DNA of 64,000 nucleotides from Escherichia coli (lineage in GTDB: Bacteria; Pseudomonadota; Gammaproteobacteria; Enterobacterales; Enterobacteriaceae), in NCBI RefSeq assembly GCF_024700885.2, contig NZ_CP117016.1. One strand, written 5' to 3'. The position numbers and the translations under genes are program-made. Below are positions 9,070 to 16,979 of the stretch, in pieces; the stretch's first letter is position 1; every line of letters starts with the position of its first letter. The notes under the pieces were generated by a model, which saw only the letters and a list, made by a program, of their open reading frames with translations, was not told the origin of the DNA and did not search any database.

Positions 9070-10047
9070 TTAAGCACCTCCTAGTGGATTAAACCTCACC
9101 GCATCCTGCAGGTAATCCGGCGCAAGATGGGCATAAATCATCGTTGTCTGAATCTTTGCGTGCCCCAGAATTTTCTGGAGCGTGAGAATATTGCCACCGT
9201 TCATCATGAAATGACTGGCGAAGGTGTGGCGCAGCGCATGAACAGCCTGGCCGTCAGGAACATCAGGTGCGACCGTTTTGATGACATCGCGAACCAATGA
9301 ATAATCCAGCGTCGGAAACACCAGTTTCCCGCCCCGTTTTTTGATCTTTTCAAACAGGCTTTCAGAAATAGGAACGGTACGGTTTTTGCTGTTCTTCGTT
9401 TTTGAAAAAGTGATTCGACAATGAAGAACACGGCGCTGCTCCAGTACCGCTACCTCGCCCCATCGCGCCCCGGTCGACAGAAGGATTTCGACAGCCAGCC
9501 GTTCATCGGGATTTTCAGCCAGTGCATCCAGCAACTGAACACATTCAGACTTACTCAGATATCCCATTTCGCGCTCGTTAACCTTCATTCCTTTAAGGCC
9601 TTGAACGGGGTTATCGTTAAGAAAATGGCCGGATGAGATGAGTGCGGTAAACATCGCGCTTAACGCCCCAATCTCTCGATTTATGGTGCTGGGCTGTATC
9701 CCCTGCTCTATCCTGGACACACGTAGCTCGGTGAGCATCGTTGTATTAAGTCTATGCACGCACGGGTCATCCATTGCCTCACTCAAGCGCAGCAATTTAA
9801 GGCGCGTGTTATGCCCTGACTTCATTAGCTGGCCGTGGTATTTCCACCACAAGTCAATAAGCACTGACAGAGGACGGCGATCAATAGAGTTTCCTTTCCA
9901 CTCATTGTTATGCTGTTGCGCCAGCACCCACCGCTCATATAAAACTGCATCCGATTTCGTTTTAAATTTTTTGCGAATGCGTTTGCCTTTACGCCCCTCA
10001 GGGCGCATGTCAAGAAGATACCCTCCCGGAATTGATTTTATGCTCAT
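9070..10047 (-). CDS. int: P2-type tyrosine integrase
   Basis: Recognised similarity to P2 Int, including ...LSTGARWGE..., HALRHTFASHF and the C-terminal catalytic Tyr region; start set at MSIKS, the track ORF starts at an upstream GTG. Confidence 0.85.
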   Translation of the reverse strand: MSIKSIPGGYLLDMRPEGRKGKRIRKKFKTKSDAVLYERWVLAQQHNNEWKGNSIDRRPLSVLIDLWWKYHGQLMKSGHNTRLKLLRLSEAMDDPCVHRLNTTMLTELRVSRIEQGIQPSTINREIGALSAMFTALISSGHFLNDNPVQGLKGMKVNEREMGYLSKSECVQLLDALAENPDERLAVEILLSTGARWGEVAVLEQRRVLHCRITFSKTKNSKNRTVPISESLFEKIKKRGGKLVFPTLDYSLVRDVIKTVAPDVPDGQAVHALRHTFASHFMMNGGNILTLQKILGHAKIQTTMIYAHLAPDYLQDAVRFNPLGGA

Positions 10048-10096
10048 TCGTGAAACCCCAGCGTTACAAGACCACCATGCCCCCAGCGTTCCATGA

Positions 10097-10405
10097 TTAG
10101 CCGGGCTGTGTACCAGTCTTGCGGGGCTTTTGAGAAGACGATGTGTTTTCTGGCCCATCAGGGGAGAGAGAGGGACTGATCTGCCCAGCAGCCTCATTCG
10201 TTTTTCCTGTCATAAGCCAATTCATGTACTTAAAAAAGCGAGGGTGATTAACAATCTTGATAAGCACTTCGCCCCCTATGTTTTCAATCCGCCCCGTTTC
10301 ATAACGACGCAAAGTGCCGATAGGCACATCAATCAGGCCGCAAAATTCTTCGCGCGTTAAATCCTCTGATTCACGAATCACTCTAATTTTTTCACCGATA
10401 AGCAT
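10097..10405 (-). CDS. Immunity repressor, P2 C-like HTH protein
   Basis: About 102 aa from MLIGEKI; resembles P2 C (GxPxGTLxxYExG HTH region); divergent from the early operon. Confidence 0.75.
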   Translation of the reverse strand: MLIGEKIRVIRESEDLTREEFCGLIDVPIGTLRRYETGRIENIGGEVLIKIVNHPRFFKYMNWLMTGKTNEAAGQISPSLSPDGPENTSSSQKPRKTGTQPG

Positions 10406-10410
10406 TGACA

Positions 10411-10462
10411 GTGTTCCTATAAGTACACTAAGCTTGCGCACAAGGTGTACTTATAAGTACAC
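10411..10462. promoter_or_regulatory. Putative operator of the immunity switch: 18-bp perfect palindrome plus imperfect upstream copy
   Basis: gtgtacttataagtacac at 10445-10462 is a perfect inverted repeat; gtgttcctataagtacac at 10411-10428 is a degenerate copy; between divergent C and cox-position genes. Confidence 0.5.
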
Positions 10463-10501
10463 CAAGTCACAAACAACCACAGATAGCGCAGGTTATCACA
10501 C

Positions 10502-10780
10502 ATGGCAAAAGTCCTGAACACACACGAACAGGCAGACTTTGAGCGTTTAGCAGCGTTCTATCCCTACCGCGATGAGCATGGGTTACCAGTACTTGAAGAA
10601 AGCCTGAAAGATTACGCAAAGCGTACCAACCAAGCTGTTAACACAGTGAAAAGACAGGCTGACAGAGGTTCAATTCCCATCAACCAAGATGAAAAGAACT
10701 CAAGACGCACAGTAAATCTTTTCGCTCTTTTCCTGAAAACAATCAGGAGCGCAGAGAAATACGTGCAGATGACAAAATAA
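10502..10780 (+). CDS. First early-operon gene in the cox/apl position (putative excisionase/early regulator)
   Basis: 92-aa ORF divergent from C; assignment is positional, sequence similarity to P2 Cox not established. Confidence 0.45.
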   Translation: MAKVLNTHEQADFERLAAFYPYRDEHGLPVLEESLKDYAKRTNQAVNTVKRQADRGSIPINQDEKNSRRTVNLFALFLKTIRSAEKYVQMTK

Positions 10781-10794
10781 CGAGGTGTCATTTT

Positions 10795-11133
10795 ATGCTG
10801 AAGCAACGCCGTAATTTTCGTACCGGAACAGAACGCCACGCTAACCATTTCGCTACCAACGCATCACGCAGCAACATCCGCTACAGCCTGAGCGAGACGC
10901 ACGCAACACCTGATGGCCACACAGTAAAACAAATTGGCGAACACACCTGGCTAATTGAAAAAGCTGGAATCGTGGTTCACAGATGCCCACGCAATCCGTT
11001 TACCGGAAACCGCATTTTTGCACTAAGCAGCGGCGACAATCAGTTCGGACAGGATTTCACATTGTACGAAGCACTTCGCACGGTTGATCGTCTGCTTCGC
11101 GGGCAAAGTTTTATTAAACAGACTGATTTATAA
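10795..11133 (+). CDS. Prophage early-region hypothetical protein
   Basis: 112-aa ORF in a co-directional early gene string. Confidence 0.45.
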   Translation: MLKQRRNFRTGTERHANHFATNASRSNIRYSLSETHATPDGHTVKQIGEHTWLIEKAGIVVHRCPRNPFTGNRIFALSSGDNQFGQDFTLYEALRTVDRLLRGQSFIKQTDL

Positions 11134-11143
11134 CAGGTGCGTT

Positions 11144-11422
11144 ATGACCAAAGAGCATGCACAAGGTGTATTTATCCGTTTTATTGATTTTCGCGGTGAA
11201 CTGTTATTGCGCGCATCAGCTATTGATGGAGTTGTCCCATCAGAAAAAAATGCAGCTACTTACGTTTATCTGAACGGCACGCGCCTGACCGTAGAACTTC
11301 CGTACCAGACTGTACACGGAATCATTAGCGAAGCTGAAAAAGCGCGCCAGGCTAATGGCAATGAACCCTATATCGAAATTATTTGCATGGATTCAGAAGC
11401 TGAAATCCAGAAAGCAGATTAA
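11144..11422 (+). CDS. Prophage early-region hypothetical protein
   Basis: ORF from MTKEHAQG preceded by aggtg; the track ORF starts further upstream. Confidence 0.45.
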   Translation: MTKEHAQGVFIRFIDFRGELLLRASAIDGVVPSEKNAATYVYLNGTRLTVELPYQTVHGIISEAEKARQANGNEPYIEIICMDSEAEIQKAD

Positions 11423-11433
11423 AGGGTGTTGCA

Positions 11434-11676
11434 ATGGACAAAGAATATAAAACACTCATCAACAAAGCACTTGAGCGTTTTTATTTTCGCTTAAGTGCAT
11501 CAGGCGCTCATGCTGAACGTGCAGCCCGTGACTCATTGACTAGGGCAATCCGGAGTCTGTATGACGTGGCTTTTTACGCTGATGATCTGGATGCACTTAA
11601 CGAACTTTCCGAGCTGATCTGTGCCGCAGAATGCGGGGAGCATATTGAACCGTATAAGCTGGGGAATATTGCATGA
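11434..11676 (+). CDS. Prophage early-region hypothetical protein
   Basis: 80-aa ORF, tight spacing with neighbours. Confidence 0.45.
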   Translation: MDKEYKTLINKALERFYFRLSASGAHAERAARDSLTRAIRSLYDVAFYADDLDALNELSELICAAECGEHIEPYKLGNIA

Positions 11677-11786
11677 GTATATTTATCTCATGGCTTGTCC
11701 TGATTATTTCGGTGGTCTGCGCCATTGGGATTATGCAAATTATTCATTCAGTAAAAAAGATTGAACGCATTTTCACTGGCGAATAA
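11673..11786 (+). CDS. Small hydrophobic peptide (37 aa), translationally coupled
   Basis: ATGA overlap with the preceding stop; MSIFISWLVLIISVVCAIGIMQIIHSVKKIERIFTGE; too short for the ORF track. Confidence 0.3.
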   Translation: MSIFISWLVLIISVVCAIGIMQIIHSVKKIERIFTGE

Positions 11787-11873
11787 CAGCGCAAATAAAA
11801 ACCCTAGGTTAAATAAGAAAATGTAAAAACAATCCGCATTCGCGGAGGTATTCGCACACGCCCAGGAGGCGTA

Positions 11874-12077
11874 ATGGCAATTAAGCATTTTCCTGTCGTT
11901 CGTTTCACTTCCAGAGGACGTGAATACGAAGTCGACGAACGCCTGATTACCACAATCGACAAACACCGCTCAGAAAAGGATGCACACCACATCTATCTCA
12001 CTGACGGTACTTACTTCTGCGCCACTAATGTGGCGCGGGTGAATCTTATCCGACAGGTACAGGATCCACGCAAATGA
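11874..12077 (+). CDS. Prophage early-region hypothetical protein
   Basis: 67-aa ORF, stop/start overlap with the next ORF. Confidence 0.4.
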   Translation: MAIKHFPVVRFTSRGREYEVDERLITTIDKHRSEKDAHHIYLTDGTYFCATNVARVNLIRQVQDPRK

Positions 12078-12292
12078 GCAGGAGAAGAATCACTCGCAGA
12101 CATCACCGCACACACCTGAATTCCTCAGCAACGCTAAAGGCACTTATTCAAAGCGAGATCGGTGATTTCTTCGCGGGAGTTGGCTCACCAGGTGAACCAG
12201 AAACACCAGAAGCGATGCAGCGTGAGCTCATGATACGCATAGATAACACTTTTGATTTCTTCTACAGCATGCACGGAATTAAACAGAAATGA
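12074..12292 (+). CDS. Prophage early-region hypothetical protein
   Basis: 72-aa ORF. Confidence 0.4.
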   Translation: MSRRRITRRHHRTHLNSSATLKALIQSEIGDFFAGVGSPGEPETPEAMQRELMIRIDNTFDFFYSMHGIKQK

Positions 12293-12400
12293 ACCTCAAG
12301 CCAGCAATAACTATTCGTAGAACGCCAATTTCTGTAACCGACCGCTTCTGAGTTTTTTGGCAGGAAGCCTTCGCACATCCTTAGTAGAGAGAATTGCAGC

Positions 12401-12790
12401 ATGATTGACGCTCATGACTTCACAAGATGGGTGCGCACACAGGACACCCGTCTGGCTCCCATTCTTCGGGGATTATTTGATCTCTACATTCGTGGTCGTG
12501 ACAACAGAGCACGCACCACAAAACCGGAGAATGTGGATACCCTTTATTTCACAGTAGACGACTGCTACCGCGTGGACTTCACACCACACGGACTGGCGTT
12601 GCACTGCCTGACACCGCACGGCGAATCACTGCTGGCGTATTACGACTCCCCGGCCTCCGTATTTGCGGCAATGCTGGCGCATCGCACTGCTGGCGGGTGT
12701 GCCTCGCTGAGTGAATACACCGCTGAGTTTAACCGCCTTTCCGCCCTCTTCTCGCAGGAGTGGCAGCGCGTGACGGGATACCAGCCATGA
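12401..12790 (+). CDS. Prophage early-region hypothetical protein
   Basis: 129-aa ORF whose stop overlaps the A start (ATGA). Confidence 0.45.
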   Translation: MIDAHDFTRWVRTQDTRLAPILRGLFDLYIRGRDNRARTTKPENVDTLYFTVDDCYRVDFTPHGLALHCLTPHGESLLAYYDSPASVFAAMLAHRTAGGCASLSEYTAEFNRLSALFSQEWQRVTGYQP

Positions 12791-15627
12791 GTGAGTTTGC
12801 ATGGAGCTGGAATGAACCACGGCCAGCCATTGATCCGGCCAGATTTACGGAGCGCAGGCAGGAAACTGAAACCGACCTGCAACGCGCCATCCGTTACTAC
12901 CTTGAGGCAGACAAAAAGGCCCAAGAAGAACAGGAAGCGAAAGAGGAAGCCTTTTTCGCACAATCCGCCATGGGTAAAAAACTCATGGCATCCCTTGAGG
13001 AAGCCGGACAGCGTGAAAAGCTGGCACAAAGCATCATCAGTAAGCGCCGGGCAACAGAACAAGACCCGGTGGCCCGTGCCTTTGCCACACTGAAGGTGCT
13101 TCCCGTTTATCTGCGAGAACCCCTGAGCCGCCACCTCTCTTTCCTGCGCAAAAAACAGGAAGCCGATCGCCGGAAAGGCAAAAAGAGCTGGCAGGCGGAA
13201 CGCTATGCACGCGGAACCCTGCGCAAAATATTCGAACGTCTGGATCGCACTGACGGACGCTGGCTGACACAGGGTTATCGCTCCATTGCCGGACGCGAAC
13301 GCCTGGACGATTTGCTTTACCTGCCGCAGCTCAACAAACACCAGGTACAGACACTGGCCACCATGACGGCAGCAATGTTCAGTAGCACATTCGAAAAACT
13401 CTGCGATGGCTTTGGCGCGACCGATGGTGAGCTGACCATGGATGTAACGCTGAAGGCGTATCAGATGCTGGCCCGCATGGCGTTACATCTGCACGCCATG
13501 CCTCCACATTATGACGCACTGACAACAGATAGAGATCGGAGGAACGAACCGGACACAGAGCTGCTGCCAGGCGCAATCCTTCGCCTGACCTGTGCTGAAT
13601 GGTGGAAACGCAAACTGTGGCTATTACGTTGCGAGTGGAGAGAAGAACAACTCCGCGCCGCCTGTCTGGTTTCCAGAAAAACATCGCCCTATCTGAGCCA
13701 GGACGCGTTAAGCGAGTTTCGCGCACAGCGCGAGAAAACACGCGATTTCCTGAAAGGTTTCATGCTGGAAAACGAAGACGGGTTCACGATTGATCTCGAG
13801 ACAGTGTATTACGCGGGAGTAAGTAACCCGGTTCACCGTAAGGCAGAAATGATGGCCACCATGAAGGGGCTGGAACTTCTGGCCGAGGCCCGTGGTGACA
13901 AAGCGGTGTTTCTGACTGTCACCTGCCCGTCAAAATACCACGCCACAACAGAGAACGGTCATCCGAATCCCAAATGGAACGGGGCCACCATGCGCGACTC
14001 CAGCGATTACCTGGTTAACACGTTTTTTGCGGCGGTCCGCAAAAAACTGAACCGCGACGGTCTGCGCTGGTATGGCATCCGCACGGTGGAGCCTCACCAT
14101 GACGGCACCGTGCACTGGCATATGATGGTCTTTGCTCATCCGGAAGAAATCGACAGCATCGTGGCCATCACCCGCGATATTGCCATTCAGGAAGACCGCC
14201 ACGAGCTGGGCAATGATATTACTCCGCGCTTTAAGGTGGAGTATGTCGACGGCTCAAAAGGCACACCAACCAGCTATATCGCGACCTACATCGGAAAAAA
14301 CCTGGACAGCCGCGCCGTGGATGGCATCGACCCGAAAACGGGCAAACCACGCGTTGACCACGAAACAGGTAAATCAATGGCCGAGAGCGTGGAGCGCGCC
14401 ATCGGCTGGGCGCGCCTTCACCGGGTCCGCCAGTTCCAGTTCTTTGGCATCCCCTCCCGTCAGGTGTGGCGTGAACTGCGCCGCCTTGCCAGCCAGATGG
14501 CACGCAACCCGGAAGGCCCGCAACGGCTGAAGGATGACGCAATGGATGCGGTACTCGCTGCCGCTGATGCCGGGTGTTTTGCCTCCTACATTGAAAAACA
14601 GGGTGGCGTACTTGTTCCACGCAAGGACTACCTGATTCGCACCGCCTACGACCTCGCAGATGAGCTGAACGATTACGGCGAACAGAGCGTACAGATTTAC
14701 GGGATCTGGTCACCACTCATCGGGGAATCCTCCCGTGTGTGCACGCACCCGGATAACTGGAAGCTGGTAAGACGTAAACCGGAAGCGGAAGACAGCACCC
14801 GCGAAAATGATTTTGACCTTCAGGGCGGCCCTGCCGCCCCTTGGACTCGTGGCAATAACTGTCCCCGTGTACAGGAAACAGACAACAACGGGACAGAACA
14901 GCCGGAAGAACGGCCAGCACCGTGGCCGCAGCTCCCTGACGGCGTTGAAGTGAACGAATGGATGCATTCACTGAAACGGCACGAACGCCGGGCGCTGATG
15001 CGTTCGCTTCGTGACAAACAGGCAAAAAACAGCAGCGATGAAATGCAGAACTGGACACAGAGCCGCAAACAGCCACAGCCTTTACCTGATAACCACGAGT
15101 TACTCGCTAAAGAATGGCGGGAGTCTGCTGAATCTCTCGGCCTGCATATTGGTGAACAGCAGATGCAGCACCTGTTACGGGGCGGCAGTCTGTACGTTGA
15201 CGGCAGCATCATTGCACCGCAGGGATTTGAAATTGTACGCAAACCGGATACCCGCCCGGACAGCCGAATCACGCAGCTCTGGCAACGCCTGAGCCGTAAT
15301 CACGGCGTAAGCAGCACGGAGATCCGCCATAACCCGGTCGCCAGCTATCTGGAACAGCTGGGGGCATCAGACCCTGAAGCCGCCGCACGCCTGGCATCCA
15401 CACTTCAGCAAGACCAGAACACCATGAAAACCCCCGTTACCGTGCTTTCTGACATGCTGCGCGCCATCCGTGACGCAGAGCACGCACAGAGAATCAGTGA
15501 AACCACTGAACGCGCCCACCGCAAAGCAGACCTGCTGCGGGGTAGCCTGACCAGTGGAAACAAAAAACAGACAGAAACGGGACTCACAAATCCCGTAAAT
15601 GAGCAAAAAACGTGCCGCGATATATGA
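12787..15627 (+). CDS. A: Rolling-circle replication initiator (P2 gpA-like HUH endonuclease)
   Basis: HUH motif region TVHWHMMVFAHPEE and tyrosine motif YIATYIGKN; 946 aa, longer than I recall for P2 A. Confidence 0.8.
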   Translation: MSEFAWSWNEPRPAIDPARFTERRQETETDLQRAIRYYLEADKKAQEEQEAKEEAFFAQSAMGKKLMASLEEAGQREKLAQSIISKRRATEQDPVARAFATLKVLPVYLREPLSRHLSFLRKKQEADRRKGKKSWQAERYARGTLRKIFERLDRTDGRWLTQGYRSIAGRERLDDLLYLPQLNKHQVQTLATMTAAMFSSTFEKLCDGFGATDGELTMDVTLKAYQMLARMALHLHAMPPHYDALTTDRDRRNEPDTELLPGAILRLTCAEWWKRKLWLLRCEWREEQLRAACLVSRKTSPYLSQDALSEFRAQREKTRDFLKGFMLENEDGFTIDLETVYYAGVSNPVHRKAEMMATMKGLELLAEARGDKAVFLTVTCPSKYHATTENGHPNPKWNGATMRDSSDYLVNTFFAAVRKKLNRDGLRWYGIRTVEPHHDGTVHWHMMVFAHPEEIDSIVAITRDIAIQEDRHELGNDITPRFKVEYVDGSKGTPTSYIATYIGKNLDSRAVDGIDPKTGKPRVDHETGKSMAESVERAIGWARLHRVRQFQFFGIPSRQVWRELRRLASQMARNPEGPQRLKDDAMDAVLAAADAGCFASYIEKQGGVLVPRKDYLIRTAYDLADELNDYGEQSVQIYGIWSPLIGESSRVCTHPDNWKLVRRKPEAEDSTRENDFDLQGGPAAPWTRGNNCPRVQETDNNGTEQPEERPAPWPQLPDGVEVNEWMHSLKRHERRALMRSLRDKQAKNSSDEMQNWTQSRKQPQPLPDNHELLAKEWRESAESLGLHIGEQQMQHLLRGGSLYVDGSIIAPQGFEIVRKPDTRPDSRITQLWQRLSRNHGVSSTEIRHNPVASYLEQLGASDPEAAARLASTLQQDQNTMKTPVTVLSDMLRAIRDAEHAQRISETTERAHRKADLLRGSLTSGNKKQTETGLTNPVNEQKTCRDI

Positions 15628-15703: not shown

Positions 15704-16663
15704 ATGAAAATTTGTATCGACGACGGCTCCACCAACATCAAGCTGGCATGGACTGAGAACGGCGAACGCCGCAACGCCATCAGCCCGAACAGCTTCAAGT
15801 CGGAATGGTCTGCGCCGTTCGGTGGCACGCAGCCCGCGAACTACATGCTTGATGGCGTGCGCTATGGTTTTGATCCGGTCAGCGATCGCTTTATCCAGAC
15901 GACCGACACACAATACCAGTACAGCGATGTGAATGTCATTGCCATTCATCACGCGCTGGTCAAATCAGGCATCACGCCACAGGAGGTGGATGTGGTTGTC
16001 ACCCTGCCACTGAGCGAGTATTTCGACACAAACGCACAGCCGGACATGGCCAACATCAACCGCAAAAAAGCAAACGTTATGCGCCCGGTGGAATACCAGA
16101 ACGGCGAAGCATTCACTATCCGTAATGTACGGGTTATGCCTGAATCCATTCCGGCTGGCTTTAAAGCACTGGCTGACATGAGTCCGTTTGAATCCCTGCT
16201 GATTGTGGATTTAGGTGGAACCACGCTGGATGTGGCAAAGGTTCAGGGACAACTGGCAGGTATCAGCCAGGTGTTTTGCGATCCACACGTAGGCGTTTCC
16301 CTGATGGCCGATGCAGTACTGTCGGTGATGGCCACTAACGGTATGCGTACCAGTCACCACATCGCCAATACCATTATCGAACATCGCCATGATGAAGCCT
16401 GGCTGCGCCAGCACATCCACAATGACGCGCATTACGCCAGCCTGATGGCGGTTATTCGTGAAAAGGAAGAAACACTGAAACAACGCGTGATCCGCGCGCT
16501 GGCGGGTTTTTCGGGTTACGGGCGGGTGATGGTTGTCGGTGGCGGGGCGGAGATTGTGGCACCCGCTATCCGCGAAGCCTGCGGAGTTAATGCGACTTTC
16601 ATCGCGGACGGGGTGCCACAGTTTGCTCTGGTTAATGGGCTGTACGCAATGGACAAGGAGTAA
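15704..16663 (+). CDS. ParM/StbA-like actin-family segregation ATPase
   Basis: 319 aa; IDDGSTNIKL, YSDVNVIAIHHAL, VMPESIPAG, LIVDLGGTTLD, VMVVGGGAE, LVNGLY match remembered R1 ParM blocks. Confidence 0.8.
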   Translation: MKICIDDGSTNIKLAWTENGERRNAISPNSFKSEWSAPFGGTQPANYMLDGVRYGFDPVSDRFIQTTDTQYQYSDVNVIAIHHALVKSGITPQEVDVVVTLPLSEYFDTNAQPDMANINRKKANVMRPVEYQNGEAFTIRNVRVMPESIPAGFKALADMSPFESLLIVDLGGTTLDVAKVQGQLAGISQVFCDPHVGVSLMADAVLSVMATNGMRTSHHIANTIIEHRHDEAWLRQHIHNDAHYASLMAVIREKEETLKQRVIRALAGFSGYGRVMVVGGGAEIVAPAIREACGVNATFIADGVPQFALVNGLYAMDKE

Positions 16664-16667
16664 ACCA

Positions 16668-16979
16668 ATGACGACACCAACCAGGCGGATAAGTTTCTAT
16701 CTGAAGCCTGCGGCCGTCAAGAACGAAAGCGAAGCATGCGCCTGGCTGGACAGCCTTACACCGGAAGCCCGCAAAAGCGGCCAACGCGTGGCTTTTCTGG
16801 CCGGGCTGGCACTTCTGAAAATGAATCCGGCAGAGGCTTACCGACTGGCTGCATGGGCTGACGATGAGGCGTTATCAGTGACACAAACCAGGACAGAACG
16901 CCCCCTGTCACAGCCAGTACCAACCGCACAGATAACCAGTCAGATGGCCGGAAATATCAGGGCGTTATTTCCTGAATAA
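16668..16979 (+). CDS. ParR/StbB-like centromere-binding adaptor
   Basis: RRISFYLKP...AFLAGLAL...IRALFP resembles R1 ParR; immediately downstream of parM-like gene. Confidence 0.65.
   Translation: MTTPTRRISFYLKPAAVKNESEACAWLDSLTPEARKSGQRVAFLAGLALLKMNPAEAYRLAAWADDEALSVTQTRTERPLSQPVPTAQITSQMAGNIRALFPE

Follow-up and report, generated by a model that had tools for sequence, protein, structure and literature searches.

A 37-codon ORF in the early operon of a P88-like prophage of Escherichia coli is, on comparative evidence that is decisive at the sequence level, a real protein-coding gene under purifying selection. Databases already list it, its product is of a familiar type (small single-pass membrane proteins), and the prophage that carries it is very common. 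The best explanation for it, which we consider more likely than not as a whole, is that a genuine gene of the prophage encodes an inner-membrane micropeptide. All coordinates refer to the window, the whole stretch of 64,000 nucleotides of E. coli DNA that was analysed.

Location of the small ORF in a P88-like prophage

The host element is a complete P2-like prophage of the P88-like kind (Xuanwuvirus, Peduoviridae) lying between btuC and ihfA, and its closest cultured relatives are phage P88 and other members of Xuanwuvirus. The preliminary description had placed the ORF within the prophage early operon, and this location is borne out by the gene order, in which the integrase and the repressor are followed by divergently oriented genes running from the Cox-like gene to GpA (Table 1). 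Gaps between the genes from Cox to GpA are −4 to 14 nt, save for one of 87 nt directly 3' of the 37-aa ORF and one of 108 nt directly 5' of the 129-aa ORF; because of this tight packing on one strand, the wording "within the prophage early operon" is a fair description. The holin, M15 peptidase, and LysC/Rz1-like genes of the prophage are found ~13 kb from the small ORF, in the late region. A holin or other lysis-cassette membrane protein was rejected as an identity for the ORF because it sits in the early operon and not in the late lysis cassette.

Table 1. Features of the prophage early region, in window coordinates
Feature	Position	Strand	Remarks
Integrase	9070-10197	-	Longest ORF; the RefSeq start is further in
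C-type HTH repressor	about 10097-10441	-	
Cox-like gene	10502-10780	+	PHROG 575, E = 1e-7
DUF4761	10795-11133	+	
92-aa ORF	11144-11422	+	
Upstream gene, DUF4754 family, 80 aa	11434-11676	+	Pfam PF15946, E = 2e-54
Shine-Dalgarno-like GGGGA	11661-11665	+	7 nt 5' of the ATG, within the last DUF4754 codons
37-aa small membrane protein CDS	11673-11786	+	ORF MSIFISWLVLIISVVCAIGIMQIIHSVKKIERIFTGE; same protein as RefSeq WP_000021664.1
ATGA start/stop overlap with the DUF4754 gene	11673-11676	+	Arrangement typical of termination-reinitiation coupling
Predicted transmembrane helix, codons 3-21 (IFISWLVLIISVVCAIGIM)	11679-11735	+	Hydropathy, AF2 helix, invariant S6, W7, L10, G19
Basic amphipathic C-terminal tail, codons 22-37 (Q/R-IIHSVKKIERIFTGE)	11736-11783	+	Predicted cytoplasmic; invariant I23, I24, K28, I30, F34
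67-aa ORF	11874-12077	+	Next gene 3' of the 37-aa ORF
72-aa ORF	12074-12292	+	
129-aa ORF	12401-12790	+	
GpA replication endonuclease	3' of the 129-aa ORF	+	

Several other features of the prophage were noted. The 72-codon ORF also overlaps the stop of its predecessor, the 67-aa ORF, by an ATGA. The RefSeq annotation covers only the 3' portion of it (12155-12292), given as a pseudogene fragment "missing N-terminus." Of the 99 positions of the phrog_4144 profile the ORF aligns with 34-97, and it therefore resembles a gene cut short at its N-terminus where mosaic segments join. Directly 3' of the GpA gene are coding regions (15704-16975, +) for ParM, an actin-like segregation protein, and for a "plasmid partitioning/stability family protein"; a P2-like phage that integrates would not usually carry such cargo. 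The right end of the prophage has, just past an ogr/Delta-like gene and ahead of ihfA, a type I toxin gene of the Hok/Gef family (46 aa; 42075-42215, +).

Annotation and distribution

The ORF had been described beforehand as unannotated, and as one of the small membrane peptides that length cut-offs miss. Not being judgeable from the raw window, its annotation status was judged against public records, and neither statement held. RefSeq lists the protein as WP_000021664.1, "hypothetical protein," and phage P88 carries it as SF19_gp07, "membrane protein" (YP_009113050.1); the NCBI pipeline annotates it routinely, with P88-type phage records calling it a membrane protein. In an E. coli chromosome whose sequence matches the region at 100% identity, the WP_000021664.1 CDS occupies the exact position with its 4-nt DUF4754 overlap, and P88 gp07 is 92% identical to the window peptide, with both the 114-nt length and the 4-nt DUF4754 overlap kept. 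Two further phage records label the peptide "putative membrane protein," and one UniRef name for it is "Membrane protein." The ORF is absent from some annotations, e.g. phage record NC_049344 and the output of the gene caller at locus L089.

The exact 37-aa peptide was found on at least 1000 public contigs, and the prophage region is present in 1355 of 5426 complete E. coli genomes. Just 14 of 50,697 phage records encode the peptide, all of them P88-like phages of E. coli or Citrobacter rodentium, and no homologue was found outside the P88-like phages among these records. A literature search returned no paper mentioning the 37-aa protein, WP_000021664, or DUF4754; the subject of the phage P88 paper is the tail fibres.

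Conservation and coding constraint

In the window, the TGA of the 80-codon DUF4754 ORF occupies 11674-11676 and is overlapped by the ATG at 11673 (junction sequence "...ggg aat att gcA TGA gta tat tta..."), so that the overlap of start and preceding stop reported in the preliminary description, together with the coordinates and length given there, matches the sequence exactly. To compare the ORF across relatives, 95 loci were assembled: 80 viral contigs reached via DUF4754, P88, one E. coli chromosome, and loci carrying the DUF4754 variants that diverge the most. None of the 95 has lost the ATG, its ATGA overlap, or the frame. Conservation of the frame in related prophages had been proposed as a check on the ORF, with its loss in homologous regions and the lack of a translation signal named as the findings that would count against it; the opposite was found, both across these loci and in the divergent lineages described below. 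The ORF is 37 aa long at 85 loci, 41 aa at 3, 45 aa at 6, and 30 aa at 1. The last two classes are late frameshift alleles (7 of 95 loci) in which the last few residues alone are altered, and the swap of the last four residues in six of the 95 points to weak constraint at the extreme C-terminus.

Variable sites in the 37-aa ORF are distributed over codon positions 1, 2, and 3 as 4, 5, and 15, and the pooled pairwise dN/dS is 0.27 in its own frame, the two remaining sense frames giving 1.29 and 1.07. By the same method DUF4754 gives a dN/dS of 0.10, the small ORF being the looser of the two. Three deeper lineages (P0129, P0130, and P0133) were recovered by a profile search of 1.84 billion representative proteins; these encode proteins of 41 aa with 54-65% protein identity to the window peptide. 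All named members come from E. coli, and P0133 is without a source name. In each case the gene follows DUF4754 with a 4-nt overlap in a P2-like prophage that has integrase, Cox, and GpA genes. Comparison with the divergent lineages gave a nucleotide identity of 61-76% and a dS of about 0.6-2 or saturated, often above 1, alongside a dN of 0.17-0.32 and a dN/dS of 0.13-0.34; for the three deeper lineages the nucleotide identity is down to 61-71%, with dN at 0.2-0.3. In every lineage, gene calling gives a gene of 37 or 41 codons that overlaps DUF4754 by 4 nt.

Two ORFs that overlap the small ORF in other frames were rejected as coding frames. The +1 ORF at 11621-11764 has lost its starts or gained stops in relatives, and the antisense ORF at 11597-11725 has lost its Met or gained stops; the dN/dS of 0.37 obtained for the latter arises because the antisense frame shares wobble positions with the 37-aa ORF. 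Database proteins of 114-116 aa under the DUF4754 name (P0065, P0082, and P0086) were considered as natural fusions with the 37-aa ORF and likewise rejected. Together with P0068, P0094, and P0100, they make up a set of 109-128-aa "DUF4754" proteins in which a frameshift carries the DUF4754 reading across the small ORF in the wrong, +1, frame; these come mostly from single short assemblies and are likely sequencing or assembly errors.

Translation signals

A purine-rich Shine-Dalgarno (SD)-like element is found 5-8 nt 5' of the ATG in every lineage, set in differing DUF4754 C-terminal codons; the translation signal predicted from sequence is thus present throughout, contrary to the second finding that had been named as counting against the ORF. 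The GGGGA of the window and of most relatives has a predicted pairing energy to the 16S 3' end of −5.5 kcal/mol. Other lineages have GGGAG, GAAGGGGA, GAGGAG, or GAGGTG at −6.5 to −8.5 kcal/mol, and weaker alleles have GGGAA or GGGCA at −4.6 kcal/mol. For reference, the window-wide background has a mean of −2.0 and other genes of the operon range from −3.3 to −10.3, and the SD of the 37-aa ORF is by these predictions only moderate. No stable RNA structure was found over the start (z = 0.59), and an Rfam search of 10000-13000 on both strands gave no match. A promoter scan of the same interval returned no sites, fewer than in shuffled sequences; since it missed even the expected divergent early and repressor promoters, the scan is too strict to speak on a private promoter.

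The start/stop overlap typical of termination-reinitiation genes, an ATGA on the same strand as the upstream gene, occurs at all 95 loci and in the divergent lineages, and this invariant ATGA, together with the SD, fits termination-reinitiation coupling. Such coupling at overlapping stop and start codons is documented in the work of Huber et al. (2019), as related in PMC11188072. Translation of the 37-aa ORF is probably coupled to that of DUF4754 in this way.

Architecture and family of the peptide

As had been described, the ORF encodes a single predicted transmembrane helix. Residues 3-21 have a Kyte-Doolittle (KD) mean of 2.81 and a Wimley-White octanol sum of −12.5 kcal/mol, the core KD is 2.7-3.0 across lineages, and the AlphaFold2 (AF2) model of the peptide consists of one helix over residues 2-35 (pLDDT 90). 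Among the 216 ATG-initiated ORFs of 30-60 aa in the six frames of the window, just two reach a 19-residue KD mean of at least 2.5, the 37-aa ORF being one. The other, a 55-codon ORF at 44239 (−) with a KD of 2.91, is located inside pheT on the strand of pheT and is probably a chance out-of-frame ORF. Third in rank of hydrophobicity among the small ORFs of the window (KD 2.32) is a 40-codon ORF, MQDTGMPTKRFDKKHWKMVVVLLAICGAMLLLRWAAMIWG, at 52259-52381 (+), which we take to contain the known E. coli small membrane protein YniD and which served as an informal positive control.

No Lys or Arg precedes the transmembrane segment and 3-6 follow it, from which, by the positive-inside rule, the 2-residue N-terminus would be periplasmic and the tail cytoplasmic. 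The absence of a basic n-region and the lack of conservation of Cys16, where divergent members have Met or Phe, indicate that the peptide is neither a lipoprotein nor a signal peptide, and a lipoprotein or secreted peptide was rejected on these grounds. Residues M1, S6, W7, L10, G19, I23, I24, K28, I30, and F34 are invariant in all lineages, and I3, F4, I11, A17, I18, I20, and E31 are nearly so. The tail conforms to the pattern [RKQ]-I-I-x-x-[VIL]-K-x-I-E-x-[FLI]-F-[TS]-[GDE]; it is conserved to the same degree as the transmembrane segment, and its hydrophobic residues share one helical face.

Pfam, PHROGs, NCBIfam, PADLOC, and PDB sequence searches gave nothing significant for the peptide. 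In the PHROG search, which was taken up to E = 10, the best E value was 0.045 or worse, to families of unknown function, and sub-threshold matches to TatA, 5-TM, and PHROG "membrane protein" models were dismissed as hydrophobic look-alikes. No PADLOC match and no PHROG annotated as exclusion links the peptide to a known anti-phage defence or exclusion protein. The profile search of the 1.84 billion representatives yielded 17 matches, all to the peptide's own family or to fragments or frameshift fusions of it, and a word-indexed search returned Escherichia sequences alone; a natural 45-aa allele was the query of the remote-homologue search. Profile matches down to 54% identity align over residues 1-37, which places the peptide in one family with P88 gp07 and WP_000021664.1, and the position typical of that family, directly after DUF4754 with an ATGA overlap in the early operon of a P2-like prophage, is also that of the window ORF. 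By these searches, the peptide is an orphan family of a narrow phage group, with named members from Escherichia and one Citrobacter rodentium phage.

The DUF4754 neighbour and the downstream spacer

The DUF4754 gene directly precedes the small ORF at every locus examined, a constant adjacency that suggests partnership. Its AF2 model is a three-helix bundle with a free C-terminal tail (pLDDT 92). A Foldseek search of the model against the PDB gave nothing better than E = 0.8, mostly designed helical bundles, and inferring a function for the peptide from its coupled neighbour was dropped for want of an informative fold match. One and the same 41-aa peptide occurs behind two DUF4754 proteins (L099 versus L100) whose identity to that of the window is 40% in one case and 84% in the other. 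The two genes are therefore separable by recombination, and the peptide does not change in step with its neighbour, an independence that fits a host-conserved target over a co-evolving phage partner. The gene past the spacer also differs among relatives, showing that the early region is mosaic (L099 versus L100, and L083-L094), and the differing 3' gene and the swapped DUF4754 together put recombination breakpoints on both sides of the small ORF.

The 87-nt spacer contains a stem-loop, tCCGC-attc-GCGGa, at 11833-11846 (+), with flanks reaching about 11825-11862, an A-run on its 5' side, and GG(T/G)ATTCGCACA on its 3' side. It is kept where the rest of the spacer and the next gene are unrelated (ORFs of 67, 137, 92, or 71 aa). 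Across 15 diverse sequences the stem is paired in 98.7% of cells, compared with 39-67% in slid controls, and two of its five pairs show compensatory changes (CCGT/ACGG and CTGC/GCAG). Read on the minus strand it resembles a short intrinsic terminator (the hairpin followed by TTGTTTTTAC). The stem-loop is single-copy in the window and has no Rfam match; it could be a terminator shielding the early module from antisense transcription, a site of RNA processing or stabilisation, or a recombination boundary.

Proposed role and alternatives

In the reading that we prefer, the ORF encodes a 37-residue single-pass inner-membrane micropeptide of the P88-like prophage. Under the P2 paradigm, a position in the early operon means expression early in lytic growth and not in the lysogen; transcription would thus come from the early lytic promoter and be shut off in the lysogen by the C-type repressor. 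Ribosomes terminating on DUF4754 would reinitiate at the ATG that overlaps its stop, with the aid of the moderate SD, and the product would insert with its two N-terminal residues outside and its tail in the cytoplasm. There it may bind, within the bilayer, a conserved host inner-membrane protein and alter the activity of that protein early in lytic growth, with the tail lying on the cytoplasmic face of the membrane or recruiting something to that face. Binding to a larger membrane protein is a common way for small membrane proteins of bacteria to act (PMC12648545), and conserved hydrophobic micro-ORFs are abundant in the Enterobacteriaceae (PMC11188072). With no homology to a characterised protein, the mode of action is argued from architecture, which pore-forming toxins and exclusion proteins share; binding of a host protein in the manner of AcrZ, MgrB, MgtS, and SidA is accordingly a speculative proposal, held tentatively and at clearly less than even confidence.

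Other readings were weighed, those that accept the gene being, in our own order of preference, a toxin-like peptide that damages the membrane, then an exclusion factor, and then a membrane anchor of a phage protein. That the ORF is no functional gene, and either is a chance spacer ORF or stays open only through constraint on an overlapping RNA or DNA element, is very improbable. As many as 129 of the 294 ATGA sites on the + strand of the window remain open for at least 37 codons, so that such a frame is common by chance and uninformative alone, and AT-rich spacers tend toward hydrophobic peptides (PMC11188072). The comparative data nevertheless already largely refute this reading: variable sites are enriched at third positions, dN/dS is well below 1 in the frame of the ORF only, synonymous sites are saturated between lineages, and the start, overlap, and length are kept in all lineages while the rival frames are not; neither an Rfam match nor an unusual RNA structure was found. 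It is unlikely, if less so, that the peptide acts like a type I toxin or Kil, its helix oligomerising and depolarising or permeabilising the inner membrane in early host shutdown. A short hydrophobic helix with a charged tail matches toxins of the Fst/Ldr/TisB type, residues 3-21 are strongly hydrophobic, and a toxic product would be tolerable in an operon expressed only after commitment to lysis. However, the peptide matches none of the type I toxin families considered (Hok/Gef, Ldr, Fst, TisB, Ibs, Sho, Zor, and DinQ) nor any other toxin family in Pfam or NCBIfam, and the profile search recovered its own family alone. Neither an Rfam antitoxin RNA on either strand nor, in a weak scan, a promoter-like site for an antisense RNA was detected, and the sole conserved minus-strand terminator-like hairpin (11846-11833) lies to the right, so that a transcript terminated there would stop short of the ORF. 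Embedded in the operon and coupled to it, the gene also lacks regulation of its own, and the prophage already has its Hok/Gef gene elsewhere. The sequence-specific tail and the invariant S6, W7, and G19 suggest a specific interaction over generic damage. Prophage-borne type I toxins are reviewed in PMC12648545.

Superinfection exclusion, in which incoming phage DNA would be blocked at the inner membrane during replication of the resident, as by the early T4 protein Imm, seems improbable. No PADLOC or PHROG similarity to defence or exclusion models was found, and the periplasmic part of just two residues leaves little to contact an incoming tail or tape-measure protein. Moreover, if the operon is repressed in the lysogen, as would be P2-like, the lysogen would receive no protection, and it is there that exclusion pays most. 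These points outweigh for us the predicted inner-membrane location, the position in an early operon, which is that of some exclusion genes, and the restriction of the family to phages from a single host group (Escherichia and Citrobacter rodentium). We likewise give a low probability to the peptide being a membrane anchor whose tail holds DUF4754 or another early protein, and perhaps the replication machinery with it, at the membrane. An ATGA overlap joins the two neighbouring genes at every locus examined, coupling would favour a fixed stoichiometry, the tail is as conserved as the transmembrane segment, and the DUF4754 model is a small, soluble bundle of helices whose C-terminal tail is free, but an identical peptide behind DUF4754 variants that are ~60% different (L099 versus L100) argues against a tightly co-evolving pair.

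To return to the micropeptide that binds a host membrane protein, it is possible, though doubtful, that the peptide is the founding member of an uncharacterised family of effector micropeptides from phages, which would bind and reprogram one specific, conserved host inner-membrane machine. If so, such effectors would be made early in lytic growth by phages resident in about a quarter of complete E. coli genomes, and a divisome component, a transporter, or a sensor kinase would be candidate targets. Through the comparative data a "hypothetical protein" gains solid evolutionary support as a gene, along with a defined architecture, and screens for host-takeover micropeptides gain a cheap 37-residue candidate that has a natural allelic series. 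The direct value is limited, and on present evidence nothing here would surprise a specialist.

Comparison with known systems

SF19_gp07 of phage P88 and WP_000021664.1 are the same gene as the window ORF, with nothing material different, and their records are without a function. The layout of the peptide as one transmembrane helix with a short charged tail in 30-50 aa is also that of AcrZ, MgrB, MgtS, CydX, and SidA, which bind larger membrane proteins (PMC12648545); unlike them, the window peptide is encoded by a phage in a lytic early operon, and it has no sequence relationship to any of them. Type I toxins (Hok/Gef, Ldr/Fst, TisB, and BsrG) share with it a small hydrophobic helix, a charged tail, and carriage on mobile elements, whereas the window ORF is coupled to an operon, has no family match, and has neither a promoter or leader of its own nor an antisense RNA that could be detected. 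TatA and TatE share the arrangement of an N-out transmembrane helix followed by an amphipathic helix. A 41-aa relative scored 15.4 bits (E = 0.013) against the NCBIfam TatA model, whose cut-off is 104 bits, a resemblance of composition and layout alone; the window's own peptide gave no match and has a much shorter tail, and it is not assigned to TatA/TatE.

The closest parallel in position is found in the P2-like phages themselves. P2 orf78 and orf80-83, and fil and dhr of phage 186, are non-essential early ORFs between cox or apl and gene A. None of these P2 and 186 ORFs is known to be a single-pass membrane peptide, but in operon position they are like the ORF of the window.
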